A DNA stretch of 25,517 nucleotides, from positions 1-25,517 of IMG/VR virus record IMGVR_UViG_3300027769_000117; one strand, 5' to 3'. The translations under genes were made by a program, and so were the position numbers. The stretch is from a virus (taxonomy: Duplodnaviria > Caudoviricetes). Shown here piece after piece: positions 18,789-25,061 of this stretch; position 1 is the first letter of the stretch, and each line of letters opens with the position of its first letter. The notes beneath the pieces were generated by a model that saw only the letters and a program-made list of their open reading frames with translations, was not told the DNA's origin and did no database searches.

Positions 18789-19295
18789 TCAGGCCTTGGA
18801 AATTTTATTGCGGTGCTGCCAGATGGCGGCTTTGTGTTTCTCGAAGAGGAGCGAGGCGGCTTTGCGGTCGCCGGCCTCGACTGCGGCCAGATATTCGGCA
18901 ACGGGATCGGCTGCCTCTGACGCGGAATTTTCGATGAGTGGGACGACGCGGGCGGGAGCGAGGCCGAGGCTACGCTCGAGGCGGGCGAGGTCTTGGGTGA
19001 CGCCGTCGAACTTCGCCCGGTAGGCGGAAGCTTCGGCGAGGGCGCTGTCTAGCTTCGCAGAGAGTTCGTTATATTTGGCGAGGATGGAGTCGGCGGCGCT
19101 GGCCTTGGCTTGTGGCTCGGCGACTTCCTCGGCAGGGATCTCCTCAACGACCGGCTCGGCGGCGACTTCTTCCGAGACGGGAGTCTCGATGACTTCAGGC
19201 GCGGGAGTTTCGGCGTTTTCGCTCACGATGCTTGCCTCGGGGGTCTCGACGACCTCGGGCTGTTCGGGCGTTTCGGTGACTACTGTTTCGGTCAT
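18789..19295 (-). CDS. Nested in-frame scaffolding protein (Nu3-like)
   Basis: In-frame ATG at 19295 just after the protease domain, preceded by TTTGACA-N14 like other gene starts. Confidence 0.65.
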   Translation of the reverse strand: MTETVVTETPEQPEVVETPEASIVSENAETPAPEVIETPVSEEVAAEPVVEEIPAEEVAEPQAKASAADSILAKYNELSAKLDSALAEASAYRAKFDGVTQDLARLERSLGLAPARVVPLIENSASEAADPVAEYLAAVEAGDRKAASLLFEKHKAAIWQHRNKISKA

Positions 19296-19886
19296 GCCCT
19301 TGGCGAATTTGTCAAATCGCGCTCGCAAACTTTCCGGTGTGGCGGTGGCTGCGGCGGCCACGCCTTCCTCGATGGCGTCGGCGAATCCGAGGGCCACGGC
19401 TTCGACGGCATCGAGCCAGGTCTCGGCGTCCATCATCTCGGCGACTTGGTTTTGATCCATGCCGGTCTTTCGGACATAAGCGTTGACGAGGGTGCTCTTC
19501 AGTTTGTCGAGGAGGTCGGCTTCTTTGCGGAGCTGGTCGGCATCGCCAGCAGAAATCGTCCACGGGTTGTGGATCATCATGAGGGCGTTGTCGGCGATGT
19601 AGACTGGCGCTCCGGCCATGGCGATCACGCTGGCCATCGAGGCCGCGAGGGCGTCGATGTGGACGGTCAGCCCGCCTTTGTGGCGGCGGAGAGCGTTGTA
19701 AATCGCGGTGCCTTCAACCACGGAACCGCCTGGGGAGTTGATGCGGAGGTGCAGGTGTTGGCCGTCGAGCTTGGCGAGGTCGGAGAGGAATTCTTTTGAG
19801 CCTGCGCCGAAAGCACCGACCTCGTCATAGAGATGAATCGTTGCTGTGCCGTCGTTGGATTTTTCCAAAGCATAAAATTTGGTCAT
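18789..19886 (-). CDS. ClpP-type head maturation protease fused to scaffold domain
   Basis: LRINSPGGSV, IDALAASMASVIAMAG (Ser), MMIHNPW (His) and ETWLDAVEAVALGFAD motifs; ATGA-coupled to portal; acidic/coiled-coil C-terminus. Confidence 0.93.
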   Translation of the reverse strand: MTKFYALEKSNDGTATIHLYDEVGAFGAGSKEFLSDLAKLDGQHLHLRINSPGGSVVEGTAIYNALRRHKGGLTVHIDALAASMASVIAMAGAPVYIADNALMMIHNPWTISAGDADQLRKEADLLDKLKSTLVNAYVRKTGMDQNQVAEMMDAETWLDAVEAVALGFADAIEEGVAAAATATPESLRARFDKFAKGMTETVVTETPEQPEVVETPEASIVSENAETPAPEVIETPVSEEVAAEPVVEEIPAEEVAEPQAKASAADSILAKYNELSAKLDSALAEASAYRAKFDGVTQDLARLERSLGLAPARVVPLIENSASEAADPVAEYLAAVEAGDRKAASLLFEKHKAAIWQHRNKISKA

Positions 19887-21334
19887 GATGGGATTGGGGT
19901 TGAGGTGAGTTGGCTTTGCTGGTTGGGGAAGACTTGGCCGAGGTCGAGGCCGAGGGCTTCGCACTTGGCTTTGCGGCGGACATAGGAGGCGAGGATGTCG
20001 TCCTCTTCGGCTTCGGCATCGAGGCCGTGCATGTTGCAGTAGCGCTCCCAGCTCAGATAACCGGAGTCGAGGAGTTGGGCATACAACCTTCCATCTCTCC
20101 CATTATCGACCGTGATCTTGCGGGGGGTGACCCACTCGACGCGCCACCAATCATCGCCGGGATAGGGAAGGCGTCCGGCTTGGATTTCCTGCCACACCCA
20201 GTATTTCCACGCGGGGAAACAGAATTGATCGATGACCATCTGCTGAATGCGGTCGAGGAAGTTCTGCGCGACTTCGAGGAGGGCGCGGGTCTCGGTGCCT
20301 GCGAGGCCGACGAGTAGCATCATTGCCTCTGGAGGCACGCCAACAGCGCGGGCGATGTCGCTCGTGTAGTCGCGCATGAGCGGCTCAAACCAAGCGCCTG
20401 GAGATTCGTTTTTGAAGCTCTGGATAGACTCGCCCGGCTTTAGGCGGGCGATGATGTTCCCATTGTAAAGGTTGTCCGTGGTGATTTCGTCACCTGCGGA
20501 ATTGGTAATCCTTGTCGCGCCGAGGCCGATTTTTTGCGCTTCGTTGCTGTTGATGACATAGCCAATCTGCGCCTGCATTTTGGTGCTGCCTTTTGCGTAG
20601 GCTTTCGTCTCGCTTTGGTCTTGTGCGGGGATGATGGCGGAGTGGAGCCACGAGACTCCTCGCGGTTGGCCGATCCGGCGGACATGGCGGATGTGCATCA
20701 TGTCGTCGGCGGGGACATCCACATATTTGCCGTTGGTGCGGTCGGTGATGACGCGGTAGCTGCGGGGCGCGCCAAAGCGGTCGAGAAGGAGGCCGTCGAA
20801 AGCGTAGTCGGGGGAGTTCAGCGTATTGCCGACGCTCTCGCCGCCGATGAAGCGGAAGCGAGCGCCGTCGGTGCCGGTGACGAGCTTTTGCGCGAAGACA
20901 TCGCCATCGAGTGCGACTTGGCGGACGATGAGGGATTGCGCGCTGTAGAAATTCACGGAGTCGCTGGCGTCGAACGCCCATGCTTCTCCACAGGCGCGGT
21001 CTTCGAAATGGCGCTCAGCGATGCGGTTCCACGCGGGGTCGGTGGTGCGGGCTTTCGGGACGATGCCGAGGCCGATGGCGCGCTGAGCGATGTGCTCGAT
21101 GATGTATGTGACAGAGGGGATGTTGTTGTAGAGCCAGCGGGCTTTGCGGATGAGTTCCTCGCGGGTGCGGGGCGTGACTTCGCGCTTGGGGTCAACGGTG
21201 TTAACGAAAATCAAGCTGCGGGCGGGCGAGTGCTCGGCGGCTTCGAAGGCGGCAGCTTGGGCGTCTAGTTTGCGCGGACGGCCGGCGCCGGGGCGGGTTC
21301 CGCCCCAACTTGATTTCTTGATTTTCGAGGGCAT
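19883..21334 (-). CDS. Portal protein, lambda family
   Basis: ELIRKARWLYNN, VALDGDVF, IGQPRGVSWL, LKPGESI and DIARAVGVP motifs; synteny. Confidence 0.92.
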   Translation of the reverse strand: MPSKIKKSSWGGTRPGAGRPRKLDAQAAAFEAAEHSPARSLIFVNTVDPKREVTPRTREELIRKARWLYNNIPSVTYIIEHIAQRAIGLGIVPKARTTDPAWNRIAERHFEDRACGEAWAFDASDSVNFYSAQSLIVRQVALDGDVFAQKLVTGTDGARFRFIGGESVGNTLNSPDYAFDGLLLDRFGAPRSYRVITDRTNGKYVDVPADDMMHIRHVRRIGQPRGVSWLHSAIIPAQDQSETKAYAKGSTKMQAQIGYVINSNEAQKIGLGATRITNSAGDEITTDNLYNGNIIARLKPGESIQSFKNESPGAWFEPLMRDYTSDIARAVGVPPEAMMLLVGLAGTETRALLEVAQNFLDRIQQMVIDQFCFPAWKYWVWQEIQAGRLPYPGDDWWRVEWVTPRKITVDNGRDGRLYAQLLDSGYLSWERYCNMHGLDAEAEEDDILASYVRRKAKCEALGLDLGQVFPNQQSQLTSTPIPS

Positions 21335-21350: not shown

Positions 21351-21626
21351 TCAAACGGGGGAGGTCACCGCGCCGAAGTTGGCGAAGGTGCCGAGCTGGC
21401 GGCCGTGGGTGCCTTCGGAGAGGAGTTCTTCGACGGCTTGGAGGAGGAGCCACTTGGGGAAGCTGATCTGTCCGGCGCTGCTTGCGCCTTCGCTGCCGAG
21501 GGATGTGATGACGACCTCCTCGGTGGCCGACGCGAAGGTGGAGAGCGCGAGGGCTTCGAGTTCGGCGGTGGTCTTGGTGCGGCGCAGGAAGGATTTAACG
21601 CCGGAGATTTTGTCGAGGTCGGTCAC
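21351..21626 (-). CDS. Small head-completion protein (gpW position)
   Basis: 91 aa with GTG start, immediately upstream of portal as in the lambda W-B order. Confidence 0.6.
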   Translation of the reverse strand: MTDLDKISGVKSFLRRTKTTAELEALALSTFASATEEVVITSLGSEGASSAGQISFPKWLLLQAVEELLSEGTHGRQLGTFANFGAVTSPV

Positions 21627-21656
21627 GCCGGAGGGGGCGTGTCAAAAGGAGGATCT

Positions 21657-21681
21657 CCCGCAGAGGCGCGGAGACGCAGAG
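21657..21681. repeat. REP-like element CTCTGCGTCTCCGCGCCTCTGCGGG
   Basis: Three imperfect CTCYGCG units on the minus strand; similar in design to the CTCCGTG units at 11055. Confidence 0.5.
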
Positions 21682-21690
21682 GGAGGTTTT

Positions 21691-21870
21691 GCAGGGACGG
21701 CGCGGCCGCACCTTTTCAGACGCCGGGTTTCCAAGGTTGCAAACCTGCTATCGACGGGAAGAGGCACCACGAGTCTTGAACTCGTGGCAGTATACGTTCT
21801 CCGGCAGCTTTAGGTTCTCCCGACCTCGATGTGCCCCATACGGAGCCATCCGTGTGTCTCGTCTGCCTGC
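21691..21870 (-). ncRNA. Candidate ~180-nt structured ncRNA of unknown family
   Basis: No credible ORF. Ends pair (GCAGG/CCTGC) and there are multiple further helices. The 5' end lies exactly 14 nt after TTTGACT. Confidence 0.55.
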
Positions 21871-21982
21871 GAGGATTTGGGTGGAGTCAAAAGCTACAGG
21901 GGAAAAAGATGCTACATTTGGCAAATGTAGAGTCCGGCGGTTTAGATTTTGCCGTAAAACTCAAGCGTGGCTTGAAGTTTGG

Positions 21983-22171
21983 CTACAATTTCGACTCGAT
22001 GTATTTCCCGCGACTCTGGTCGCCGCGGTCGCGGTCGAGCTTTTGCCAGCTCTCCGGTTGCATGGAGACGGATCTGGTGATGGCCGTTCGGCCTTTGGAG
22101 TTTTTGTTTTTGCTGCCGGTTTTGCGGCCGGCATTTTTGCGCGGGCCGCCGTGGGTGGTGGGCTTGCTCAT
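21983..22171 (-). CDS. Ribbon-helix-helix-like DNA-binding protein with basic GGxRxxAGRK N-terminus
   Basis: HGGPRKNAGRK, then an alternating strand ITRSVSM and two helices (PESWQKLDRDR, SRGKYIESKL). Confidence 0.68.
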   Translation of the reverse strand: MSKPTTHGGPRKNAGRKTGSKNKNSKGRTAITRSVSMQPESWQKLDRDRGDQSRGKYIESKL

Positions 22172-22317
22172 TTCGGGCGCGGGTAGTAGCCGGAGGGGGT
22201 GTCCACTTGGGTGAGGGTTGGATTTTTTTGCAGGATTTCGGCGGCTTGGTCTTTCGTGATGTCTTTGCTGACAACGGCTCGGGTGCCGATCTTTTGGAAT
22301 TTGATTTCTGTTTTCAT
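22168..22317 (-). CDS. 49-aa hypothetical protein (not in ORF track)
   Basis: MKTEIKFQKIGTRAVVSKDITKDQAAEILQKNPTLTQVDTPSGYYPRPK; ATGA overlaps at both ends. Confidence 0.7.
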   Translation of the reverse strand: MKTEIKFQKIGTRAVVSKDITKDQAAEILQKNPTLTQVDTPSGYYPRPK

Positions 22318-22589
22318 TTTGTAGGAACGATGAATTTTGCGACGAGTTTGCCGAGTGTCAGGGTTTGAAAGGCGGGGTCTTCGTCTTCTCCTTCCCAGTT
22401 GTAAACCTCATATTCGTGACGGGTGTTTGAGAGTCTGCCGCCATTGTCATCCCAATCCCATCGGCGAATGACTGCGAGGTCGTCCCATATCGCCTGTCCT
22501 GCACTATGTGGTTGGCCCTGATCTTCCGGTGGCGTCAGATAGGTGAGGTTTTCAATTTCGTCTTGTTCTTGCGGTGTTAGCGTTTTCAT
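22314..22589 (-). CDS. 91-aa acidic hypothetical protein
   Basis: ATGA overlaps at both ends. Confidence 0.72.
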   Translation of the reverse strand: MKTLTPQEQDEIENLTYLTPPEDQGQPHSAGQAIWDDLAVIRRWDWDDNGGRLSNTRHEYEVYNWEGEDEDPAFQTLTLGKLVAKFIVPTK

Positions 22590-22747
22590 TTTTTCGAGCG
22601 GGTGGAGGTTTTGAGGTTGTGGGATATCAGGATTTGTTCGGATTTTTGGAGGGCGAGGGCTAAGTCTTCAAGCGTGCTTTTCAGTTCTTTGCCGAGGAGC
22701 ACGAGGCAGGCCAGCGAATTGTAGAGGCTTCGGTCGTTGGTTTTCAT
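22586..22747 (-). CDS. 53-aa leucine-rich helical protein
   Basis: ATG at 22747 after a C/A-rich leader; MKTNDRSLYNSLACLVLLGKELKSTLEDL... Confidence 0.62.
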   Translation of the reverse strand: MKTNDRSLYNSLACLVLLGKELKSTLEDLALALQKSEQILISHNLKTSTRSKK

Positions 22748-22760
22748 TTTTGTCGTGGGT

Positions 22761-22787
22761 TGGTGGCGCGGGGATCGAACCCGCGCC
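22761..22787 (-). other. tRNA-like T-loop hairpin ending in ACCA
   Basis: GGCGCGGG-TTCGATC-CCCGCGCC-ACCA: a perfect 8-bp stem with a 7-nt T-loop. Confidence 0.65.
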
Positions 22788-22797
22788 GGGTGGGTGG

Positions 22798-22986
22798 TTA
22801 GTGAAGTTCTGGGCAATCTTCCCAGAGCTTGATTGTGCCATCGCGGAACACGACGACTTCGCCGAATGAAGTCAGAATGTTGACGCTGTGGACTAGACCG
22901 TTCGCCAAAGTGGCTGCTGCCAAGTTGCGGGCTTCGGTCAGGGTTTTTGGCATTTTTGCCGAGGTGGAGTTTTTCATAAGTTGCAT
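22798..22986 (-). CDS. ~60-aa hypothetical protein
   Basis: ATG at 22986 (or 22977) after the A/C-rich leader ACAAAAACCAAAAACCAA. Confidence 0.6.
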   Translation of the reverse strand: MQLMKNSTSAKMPKTLTEARNLAAATLANGLVHSVNILTSFGEVVVFRDGTIKLWEDCPELH

Positions 22987-23033: not shown

Positions 23034-23095
23034 ACTCTCTCACGCTCTTGATTTCTCGTCAACAACTTTTTTTCAAGAAAATGAAAATAATTTTG
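23034..23095 (-). promoter_or_regulatory. Putative sigma70-type promoter with UP element for the mini-gene operon
   Basis: AT-rich tract, TTGACG at 23062-23057, 17-nt spacer, TGn-GAGAGT (weak -10). Confidence 0.45.
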
Positions 23096-23172: not shown

Positions 23173-23385
23173 TTAGGACATCCCGAAGATTTTCATAAGG
23201 TCTGCAACGCCTTTTGAGTCGGTGGCCGGCGGGGCTTCGTGCTCGGGCTCGCCTTCGTGTAGAGCCAAGTTCCATGTCTGATCGAACATCTTGCGGAGGC
23301 CGCGCGTTGACAAAGTAACATTTCCATCGCGCTCGAATGCGGGATTCTTTGCCACATAGATTTTCCAGAGTTGTGATTTTTTCAT
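23173..23385 (-). CDS. 70-aa hypothetical protein
   Basis: ATGA-coupled to the terL stop; MKKSQLWKIYVAKNPAF...ADLMKIFGMS. Confidence 0.72.
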   Translation of the reverse strand: MKKSQLWKIYVAKNPAFERDGNVTLSTRGLRKMFDQTWNLALHEGEPEHEAPPATDSKGVADLMKIFGMS

Positions 23386-25061
23386 TTGAATTCGATGGCT
23401 CCGGCTTTGCGGAGTTGTTGCGCGCAGGCGTAGTTGAGGCGAACGGAGTCGGCGAAGTGGTCGCCTGCGACCGAGCGCCATTCCTTGCGGCCTTTTTTGC
23501 TGACGATGATTTTTTGCCCCATGAAGGCGGAGAGGAATTCTTCGCCGGAGTCTTTGGGGAAAAACAGGAATGGGGATTTGCGCTTGGCGATGCGGTCGAT
23601 GAAGAGGGAGACTTTCGACGCGAATTCGTTGACGGTGTAGAGGGGCATCGTGGGGTATTCCTTCAGCACGCTTTCGGAGATGCTGCCGAAATTCGCGCCG
23701 GAGCCTTTGGCGGGGAAAAAGAAATTCCCGGAGAGGTAGCAGGCGCGATAAACGGCGTTGGCGTTGAAGCCTGAGTCGAGGAGGCCGCCGATGGGGGTGA
23801 CTTCTCTGCTGTCGGGCGTTTTGAATTTCTGCGACTGCGCGACCTGGAGCATGTCCTCGATGCCGGTGACGGTGCCGTAGTCGAGCACATAGGCGTCGCC
23901 ATTTTCTGAAAAGGCCATGGTCGTCCAGTGCGATGTGTCTTGGCCGACATCGGCTGAGAGGGTGATGGCCACCGGATCGATGGGGCAGGCTCCGCGCAGG
24001 TAGTCTTTGCGACAGGCGAGGACCTCGGCGCTGGTGGCTCCGGTGCCTTGGACGGTCCACCGGCGGGCGTTGCGTTTTTGGATGAATTGTTTCATGGCCT
24101 CGGTGTCTCCGGCCTTGCGGTCGAGATCGGCTTTGACCCACTCGACAGCGAGCGATCCCCACGGAATCCACCAGACGGCGGAGGCATCGTAGTGAAAGGC
24201 GATGCGTCCTGGCGCGCCGTGCGAGGTGACGGTGTAGCGGGAGCCGGAGGAGAGGGCGCGGCGGATGCGGGGATCGTCCATGTATTCGTGCGAGCAGGTG
24301 GGGCAAACGAGCCGCGCGCTCTTGGCGACGCGGTCCCAGAGCATGGCGCCATTGGCATCGGTCTCTCGGTCGAAGGCGATGTTTTTAAAATCCCACGGGT
24401 GGACTTCGCCGCATAGGCACTGCCAGGAGAATTCGCGCTTTTCGCAGAGGTCTTCCGCGTCGTGGAAGTCGTCGCCTTCTTCTCCACCTTGGGAGACGAG
24501 GATGCGGCGGGCGTTCCATCGGTCGTGGGTGCGCCGGCGAAATTCCTCGAGCATGCCGCGCTTCCAACGCCACACCTCGTCGGCAATAGCCCACCGGATG
24601 GATTTCTCCTGGAGGCTGGTGAGGTTGGCGCCGCCGATGAAGAGGGGCATGTGGGGAAAGAGGATCTCCGTCTTGCGCTTTTGGTGGCGGTCTTTCGGGA
24701 AGAGCTTTGCGACTGATGGGATGGCTTCCAGCATCGGCCCGAGGCGCGACTCGGCCCACTGCTTGGCGGTCTTGTCCGTCTGGCCGGTCACCAATGTCGG
24801 GCCGGGGTTCTCGCTGATGATCCACGCCAGAAGCGCCTCGAATAGCGTCGTCTTGCCGCTGCCGACAGGCGCGCAAATGATGATCTCGTCGTTGGTGTCT
24901 TTGGCGATTTCCTCGATGGGCTCGTTCATCCATTGCGCTGTCGTGGAATCGAATTGCGTATTCCGCGCGGAATGCGGGACGACGACATGCCGAGACATCC
25001 ATTGCACCGGACTGAGCCGCTCACCGGGGTTGACTCCGAGTTTGAAGAATTCTGCGATCAT
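23382..25061 (-). CDS. terL: Terminase large subunit, lambda gpA family
   Basis: Walker A APVGSGKT, Walker B AIADEV, Zn-finger CLC/CPTC, nuclease motifs SADVG, LLDSG and DHFADS. Confidence 0.95.
   Translation of the reverse strand: MIAEFFKLGVNPGERLSPVQWMSRHVVVPHSARNTQFDSTTAQWMNEPIEEIAKDTNDEIIICAPVGSGKTTLFEALLAWIISENPGPTLVTGQTDKTAKQWAESRLGPMLEAIPSVAKLFPKDRHQKRKTEILFPHMPLFIGGANLTSLQEKSIRWAIADEVWRWKRGMLEEFRRRTHDRWNARRILVSQGGEEGDDFHDAEDLCEKREFSWQCLCGEVHPWDFKNIAFDRETDANGAMLWDRVAKSARLVCPTCSHEYMDDPRIRRALSSGSRYTVTSHGAPGRIAFHYDASAVWWIPWGSLAVEWVKADLDRKAGDTEAMKQFIQKRNARRWTVQGTGATSAEVLACRKDYLRGACPIDPVAITLSADVGQDTSHWTTMAFSENGDAYVLDYGTVTGIEDMLQVAQSQKFKTPDSREVTPIGGLLDSGFNANAVYRACYLSGNFFFPAKGSGANFGSISESVLKEYPTMPLYTVNEFASKVSLFIDRIAKRKSPFLFFPKDSGEEFLSAFMGQKIIVSKKGRKEWRSVAGDHFADSVRLNYACAQQLRKAGAIEFK

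Follow-up and report, generated by a model that had tools for sequence, protein, structure and literature searches.

A Phage RNA Family Absent from Rfam, with a Pseudoknotted Base, Exchangeable Arms, and a Covarying Palindromic Loop

The RNA gene in its genomic setting

The window analyzed here (the whole 25,517-nt stretch of DNA) is an entire 25.5-kb virus record, IMGVR_UViG_3300027769_000117, with a completeness of 70%. Its genes, which lie on the minus strand throughout, include terS, a gpA-type terL, a lambda-family portal, a ClpP-type protease, a tape measure, an endolysin, and an integrase; the source phage is lambda-like and temperate. The RNA gene described in this report (Table 1) is situated within the 1.75-kb interval separating terL from a 91-aa gene in the position of lambda gpW (hereafter, the gpW-like gene). 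Across 79 portal-related loci this interval ranges in length from 33 to 3437 nt, and we therefore regard it as an insertion hot spot. Also on the minus strand, at 21983-22986, are five tiny ORFs of 49 to 91 aa, a moron-like cassette without PHROG matches, which is preceded by a sigma-70-like TTGACG at 23062; its final ORF (P0001) encodes a 62-aa peptide of basic character and possible DNA-binding activity. The pyrimidine-rich repeat listed in Table 1 is retained at sites without the RNA gene (L002 and L005) and may be a host repeat or a signal for termination.

Table 1. Features of the RNA gene and its surroundings in the window
Feature	Position	Strand	Basis or remark
Terminase large subunit gene, lambda gpA-type	23382..25061	-	Context
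TTTGAC, late-promoter-like motif (inferred promoter)	21886..21891	-	15 nt 5′ of RNA nt 1
RNA gene, 180 nt	21691..21870	-	Model R1 score of 100 bits (window RNA itself part of the training set); homologues
P1 5′ strand GCAGG (partner CCUGC, 21691-21695)	21866..21870	-	Two-sided changes in 5/5 pairs
P2 5′ strand CAGACG (partner CGUCUG, 21717-21722)	21860..21865	-	Two-sided changes in 6/6 pairs
P3 (GAUG/CAUC) and exchangeable arm 1 (hairpin GCUCC/GGGGC)	21828..21850	-	Covariation alignments
Pseudoknot 5′ strands GAGGU and CGGG	21819..21827	-	100% paired
Exchangeable arm 2, with 8-bp hairpin and recurring bulge/CUC module	21741..21817	-	
Pseudoknot 3′ strands ACCUU and CCCG, with GGAAA linker	21724..21737	-	Covariation
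3′ hairpin GGUGCGGCCGCGCC, three-way junction; AAAA 5′ and GUC 3′ of the hairpin	21699..21712	-	
Palindromic hexamer CGGCCG, predicted intermolecular dimer interface	21703..21708	-	
Pyrimidine-rich imperfect repeat	21654..21686	-	3′ of RNA gene in the phage group; outside the RNA
TTTGAC (21641-21646) and 91-aa gene in lambda gpW position	21351..21646	-	Identity from position; no family match
Portal gene, lambda-family	19883..21334	-	Context

The first-pass annotation of this DNA had placed the first G of the RNA (21870) 14 nt past a TTTGACT (21891-21885) and had noted that the next gene has a TTTGACA of its own, both of which we find as described. TTTGAC occurs within 40 nt of 44 of the 91 reference members of the family defined below; in all 44 its spacing to RNA nt 1 is 14 to 15 nt, the same distance at which it stands upstream of the start codon of gpW-like genes (46/46) and portal genes (43/43). 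Because this spacing is conserved, we infer that transcription starts at 21870, and the motif probably acts as a promoter that sets both leaderless mRNA starts and the 5′ end of the RNA. TTTGAC is not overrepresented in the window (12 copies versus 11.7 expected; 11 of the 12 on the minus strand), and a scan for sigma-70 promoters and intrinsic terminators found nothing at the RNA ends. A separate copy of the motif precedes the gpW-like gene, which therefore has no need of the RNA as a 5′ untranslated region; with a spacing to TTTGAC like that of late genes and no match in Rfam, the earlier reading of a stand-alone pseudoknotted RNA gene holds up. Members in other phages are preceded by A/U-rich linkers or by the CCA of a tRNA, which suggests that these are processed out of longer transcripts.

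Late genes in general appear to be leaderless, both in the window (21641, 21350, 17828, and 3750, minus strand) and in loci L001 to L079. Within the ClpP-type protease gene, an internal, in-frame ATG (19295) is preceded by another TTTGAC at a distance of 15 nt (19295-19316, minus strand). This suggests that the internal ATG is the start of a nested scaffold protein, for which lambda C/Nu3, with its nested scaffold protein, offers a comparison.

The annotation had also proposed looking for a transcript in metatranscriptomes. One freshwater metatranscriptome contains an identical 153-nt contig spanning 21710-21862, whose depth (8.3) is the greatest among the eight phage pieces listed, the seven coding-region pieces lying at 2.8 to 5.2; the run was selected using the window itself, and contigs reveal neither strand nor level, so that the contig is weakly compatible with expression of the RNA. 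Runs X2 to X5 contain small shares and related strains, and X4 is probably DNA; these runs were excluded from the evidence on expression and habitat.

Family members and the covariation of their fold

The family comprises more than 100 distinct sequences with lengths of 76 to 231 nt. A 3′-end pattern applied to viral records (61 of 64 parts scanned) returned 119 stretches, which together with other fetched loci gave 96 distinct sequences, 88 of them with a matching 5′ end; allowing one junction variant and adding a bacterial locus (L386) produced the reference set of 91 members. The metagenome scan (25 of 64 parts) gave 118 matches, of which 85 were nonmembers; the 33 members included 19 new ones. 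Because such patterns fix the ends, a second search relied on interior motifs only, and this was the source of the P1 sequence variants. One interior type gave 57 matches with the same base in 49, and of the remaining 7 distinct sequences the majority were variants of that base. The interior of the window RNA gave 96 matches, with the partner pseudoknot strand present in 93 (65 distinct); only 7 have the canonical base, and elsewhere the sequence of P1 differs while its pairing is kept.

Among bacterial genomes, a pattern scan of GTDB (29 of 64 parts) found one true member among the 120 matches listed, the remaining 119 listed serving as a negative control. A phylum-wide search with a 17-mer gave matches in 13 of 401 genomes at no more than one mismatch; G013 is a true member, and the other 12 gave no hit with our covariance model (R1). 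The sole named bacterial genome with a true family member is the Spartobacteria metagenome-assembled genome carrying L386, and the RNA was found in 3 of 151 genomes of its order, lying between terL and portal in two and near a weak phage-gene match in the third. On these grounds the host of the phage is probably a freshwater verrucomicrobium.

The RNA family is absent from the Rfam catalogue and widespread in phages. With Rfam 15 the window matched nothing at gathering thresholds or at E values up to 10, and 50 homologous loci returned only tRNAs or chance matches outside the element, so that novelty with respect to Rfam stands. BLASTN of three members against cultured phages gave no meaningful match, and a literature search, covering largely papers available without subscription, found no description of the family. 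The accessible part of PMC10690425 reports more than 10,000 automated candidate viral RNAs; its four readable supplements contain no match to our motifs, and the family may be among the candidates themselves. Likewise, no HRIMA motif in the sections and supplement covered of PMC10085705 matches the family. Protein coding on either strand was rejected, as member lengths are evenly distributed among the three frames (29/31/31; n = 91).

Run on 32 diverse members, RNAalifold recovered P1, P2, P3, one stem of the pseudoknot, and the 3′ hairpin unaided; 22 of the 27 pairs had changed on both sides. For the full model on an alignment of 32, 99.5% of cells were paired and 18 of 26 pairs had two-sided changes, values reached by 0 of 500 shuffles, with slid controls at 36 to 41% paired; the 32 rows were picked from about 140 because they were diverse and had short arms, complementarity guided the trimming of P1 ends, and the statistics ignore kinship. 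A second alignment, of another 27 members, had 99.7% of cells paired. The covariation supports a closed three-way-junction base, in which P1 pairs the 5′ and 3′ ends of the molecule with each other, together with an H-type pseudoknot formed by GAGGU/ACCUU crossing CGGG/CCCG. GAGGU/ACCUU changes to GAUCU/AGAUU and GAACU/AGUUU in other members, all of them paired.

Every complementarity named in the first-pass annotation was located in the sequence at its given place, and homologues, the proposed route to a decision, were found. They support the pairings GCAGG/CCUGC and CAGACG/CGUCUG and the 3′ hairpin GGUGC-GGCC-GCGCC. A pseudoknot exists as claimed, although not through the crossing pairs that had been suggested (GGGGCAC/GUGCCUC, AUCGA/UCGAU, and CGGGAG/UUCCCG); these and the hairpin AGGUU/AACCU, taken together, were paired in 50% of cells with a covariation score of 0.039 versus 0.035 in shuffles. 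The shuffle control that had been proposed for the single sequence went against the claim: the window RNA by itself has no significant folding advantage over chance (z score of −1.40, with 15 of 200 shuffles folding equally well), and family z scores are modest (median, −1.66; 12 of 40 under −2). The folding energy being unexceptional, it is the covariation of homologues that settles the structure.

A self-complementary loop and a predicted dimer

The most conserved property of the family is one that the first-pass annotation overlooked, namely, the self-complementarity of the 3′ loop. No search pattern constrained the sequence of this loop, and its 6-nt palindrome varies in sequence among members while remaining self-complementary. 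A 4-nt Watson-Crick core with a further Watson-Crick or G-U pair is present in 89 of 91 members and in all 19 new RNAs; among distinct hairpins, 26 of 28 are palindromic, compared with 7 of 50 genomic matches that arose by chance, are similar in length, and have identical flanks (Fisher P = 3.5e-12, relatedness not being modeled). In the interior-anchored set, a perfect Watson-Crick hexamer occurs in 53 of 56 sequences, and nine interior-anchored sequences that the junction pattern missed have a palindromic 4- to 6-mer by eye. The perfect hexamers comprise 13 different sequences. The full Watson-Crick/G-U hexamer is missing in 5 of the 144 sequences pooled, some of which are duplicates, and some members have palindromes of weak duplex energy (e.g., AUGCAU, −4.7 kcal/mol).

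All three palindrome pairs covary in alignment A4 (n = 32), including the two adjacent central bases, which are GC in 25 rows, CG in 6, and otherwise in 1. Adjacent bases are unable to pair within one strand; therefore, the simplest interpretation is that two RNA molecules pair with each other, and we consider it very likely that the RNA homodimerizes through its palindromic loop, as HIV-1 DIS does. The loop has the property that defines a DIS-type element, a self-complementary 6-nt sequence kept by compensatory changes. In ViennaRNA predictions for the window RNA, the extended-duplex dimer has −154.9 kcal/mol versus 2 × −68.5 kcal/mol for the monomers, a difference of 18 kcal/mol in favor of the homodimer.

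Alternatively, the palindrome might belong to a DNA-level or selfish element, as a protein-binding site or an insertion signal. The presence/absence polymorphism of the gene, its terminal inverted repeat, and its occurrence in 3 of 151 host-order genomes would fit such an element. We nevertheless judge this highly improbable: the G-U-tolerant covariation and the pseudoknot are RNA signatures, the hexamers number more than a dozen and therefore do not represent a single protein's DNA site, and the window and the five records checked each carry one copy per genome, with no target duplication at empty sites.

Another possibility is a structural RNA that has no specific target and builds higher-order cages or is packaged in virions, like manA, ROOL, and GOLLD. 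The late-type promoter favors it, as do the occurrence of members in tRNA arrays, where ROOL and GOLLD are found (in the accessible text of PMC12990946), and the ability of RNAs of less than 200 nt to form cages (reported in the accessible part of bioRxiv 10.64898/2026.07.01.735769). Yet a single self-complementary loop closes as a two-fold dimer, alignments A2 to A4 contain no second conserved intermolecular interface or loop pair, and the arms are too variable to supply one; we consider cages or virion RNA rather unlikely.

Dispensability, exchangeable arms, and possible function

Of the 79 portal loci fetched, 11 give an R1 match to the RNA; among the 14 loci whose portals are at least 85% identical, 8 do so (the upstream region is missing from one of these 14). 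Five whole records searched with R1 lack it, two of these being at least 90% complete (93% and 98%) and one of these two having a 99% identical portal; the positive control matched 5 of 5 known carriers. In L012 just about 18 nt of the 3′ end are left, upstream of the gpW-like gene, as a deletion remnant. Ten sister phages with 68% identical portals have the RNA elsewhere in the genome, some 3 kb upstream of terL, and the contexts found in other phages include positions downstream of PAPS reductase, DnaB helicase, and HNH genes, tRNA arrays, and a position convergent to a terminase-like gene. A tRNA lies within 400 nt in 21 of 93 loci, many of which come from one clade. The RNA is, in short, an optional and dispensable phage gene.

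These findings bear on the packaging or assembly role for which the first-pass annotation had invoked phi29 pRNA. As a pRNA-like part of the DNA-packaging motor, the RNA would have a suitable size, a three-way junction, loop-loop pairing between copies, and, in this phage group, a position between terL and portal. However, we give almost no credence to this reading. Neither of the two relatives that are at least 90% complete carries the RNA, whereas a phi29-type pRNA would always be present; the gene is independent of packaging genes, lying about 3 kb upstream of terL in the sister phages and elsewhere beside helicase, PAPS reductase, or tRNA genes; and the terminase is of the lambda gpA type. 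Moreover, pRNA rings form through two different complementary loops (as given in the accessible part of PMC7357161), whereas the family has one self-complementary loop.

Other structured RNAs share these locations. At L135 and L123 there is a second, unrelated three-armed small RNA whose terminal hairpin likewise has a loop palindrome, GUUAAC (its wobble variant, GUUAGC, occurs upstream of L136), and a third structured RNA lies in between, making these loci arrays of uncatalogued RNAs. Upstream of the gpW-like gene of L056 and L057, in the same hot spot, is a different structured RNA of about 155 nt with paired ends, which begins 14 nt after TTTGAC, has no Rfam match, and also directly follows the RNA in L589. 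In another phage group (L665, L628, L594, and L626), further uncatalogued structured RNAs stand in tandem behind a family member.

While the base is constant among members, the interior is swapped between phages. Arm 1 of the window RNA, the same or nearly identical, recurs with a different arm 2 in L148, L150, and L685, and the arm 2 of L008 recurs in similar form with a different arm 1 in L430, L610, and L685; phages with 94 to 99% identical portals have different RNA interiors. One recurring arm module consists of a 5-nt bulge, a short GC helix, and a CUC internal loop. In forward orientation its pattern is found in 45 of 144 pooled sequences; in the window RNA (AUACU bulge at 21789-21793, CUC internal loop at 21761-21763) and in L148 its orientation is inverted relative to other members. 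A natural variant, U77C (runs X2, X3, and X5), turns a predicted U77-G106 pair into C-G. Stand-alone RNAs of 45 to 130 nt behind TTTGAC, in L016 to L022, as the second element of L004, and as hairpins in L008/L014 and L019/L020, share the CUC-loop/bulge module with arm 2 of the window RNA. The pseudoknot itself comes in at least three sequence types and is missing in 10 of the 91 members (76 to 94 nt), and therefore no single arm provides a universal function.

The invariant unpaired and wobble nucleotides of the family are concentrated at the P2/P3/pseudoknot junction. In riboswitch aptamers, invariant unpaired nucleotides likewise cluster at junctions, and one may imagine the dimer as a small-molecule aptamer whose junction pocket sequesters a metabolite or an immune signaling nucleotide. 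The variety of pseudoknot types, the members that dispense with a pseudoknot altogether, and the lack of an Rfam riboswitch match or a consistent downstream gene all argue against this reading, which we find rather unlikely.

The first-pass annotation had also called the RNA ribozyme-like, and a ribozyme that cleaves itself, or that processes neighboring tRNA transcripts as theta ribozymes do, would have in its favor the pseudoknot, the multistem junction, and the invariant core, the few bases that separate some members from a tRNA CCA, and the hammerhead-like CUGAUGA and GAAA words of some members. Theta (HDV-like) ribozymes reportedly adjoin phage tRNAs. A known self-cleaving class nevertheless did not emerge, since there was no Rfam ribozyme match. 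The hammerhead, in which CUGANGA, GAAA, and UH elements are linked through stems I-III, was rejected in any permutation: CUGANGA occurs in 14 of 75 pseudoknot-type members and is absent from the window RNA, CGGAUG occurs in 50 of 75, and the covarying flanking helices connect differently. In the HDV fold, a nested double pseudoknot is cleaved at its 5′ end, whereas here the 5′ and 3′ ends are mutually paired and the pseudoknot is single, which speaks against an HDV-like or theta ribozyme. The family thus shares with theta and hammerhead ribozymes the character of small pseudoknotted RNAs and differs in topology and in not having the catalytic consensus; with no tRNA near the window copy, we regard catalysis as improbable.

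The reading that we tentatively favor, while stopping short of calling it probable, is that of an accessory RNA that serves a host factor as a bivalent decoy or scaffold. According to this model, the RNA would be transcribed late in infection from its own TTTGAC late promoter and would fold into a closed, nuclease-resistant molecule with its three-way-junction base and pseudoknot. Palindromic loops would then kiss, joining two copies, possibly with maturation to an extended duplex as in HIV-1 DIS, and the homodimer would display two sets of interchangeable arms. It would act in trans, as a binder and not as a catalyst. We think of an accessory arms-race gene because of its dispensability, its location in hot spots and tRNA arrays, and the shuffling of its arms. 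That the arms bind a host defense or translation factor is a possibility we hold more loosely, suggested by the accessory hot spots and tRNA arrays in which the gene sits and by its mix-and-match arms. Going further, one could envisage an antibody-like RNA platform, in which a constant dimerizing base carries plug-in aptamer arms (the pseudoknot variants and the bulge/CUC module in one orientation or the other), exchanged among unrelated phages, that bivalently neutralize various factors of host defense or translation; this extension is conceivable, albeit unlikely.

To our knowledge, natural RNA-only multimers are rare, and the majority were chance discoveries by cryo-EM. Here, a quaternary contact appears to have been recorded by evolution, as adjacent-base covariation that is possible solely between two molecules, and such covariation could serve as a sequence-only screen for dimerizing RNAs. 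The family is small in size (76 to 231 nt), is easy to transcribe, and has natural loop-swap controls built in. It also bears on what role stable RNAs other than tRNAs play in phage tRNA clusters and at late-gene insertion sites. If the arms are interchangeable binders, they would constitute a new class of RNA-based counter-defense.

Comparison with known RNAs

Several known RNAs were compared with the family and set aside. A tRNA or tmRNA identity was rejected (ARAGORN found none, the base after P1 varies, and the palindrome occupies the T-loop position), as was mimicry of the 23S rRNA peptidyl-transferase loop, for which no 15-mer matches at more than 12 positions, a score that shuffled cores equal or exceed in 156 of 1,000 cases. 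T4 rnaC/rnaD and the T5 stable RNAs resemble the family in being stable phage RNAs of 100 to 180 nt in tRNA arrays; R1 found nothing in them below an E value of 1.6, with no match on rnaC/rnaD. An identity with manA was rejected on the absence of Rfam matches to it in the 50 homologous loci.

As a group, manA (RF01745), EGFOA (RF02955), ARRPOF, OLE, ROOL, and GOLLD are structured, several of them near phage tRNA arrays, and have intermolecular kissing loops and variable peripheral helices like those proposed here (on the accessible parts of bioRxiv 10.64898/2026.07.01.735769 and PMC12990946). The present RNA is smaller than most of the manA/EGFOA/ROOL/GOLLD group and has no Rfam match at E values up to 1 to 10; it also differs from the multimer-forming RNAs in having one palindromic loop (a two-fold dimer) and arms that are exchanged between unrelated phages.

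The closest likeness is to the HIV-1 DIS and the oskar 3′ UTR kissing loop, with which the family shares a 6-nt, GC-rich hairpin-loop palindrome that is often purine flanked. In HIV-1 the palindrome is GUGCAC and gives both kissing and extended-duplex dimers (according to the accessible part of PMC7357161), and this very hexamer is used by 14 of the 91 family members. Homology to DIS and oskar is limited to the motif, dimerization of the phage RNA being a prediction, and here the loop sits in a free-standing phage small RNA rather than in a genomic or messenger RNA. On our analysis the family, a member of none of these classes, appears to work like DIS-type dimers and to group conceptually with the multimer-forming phage RNAs.
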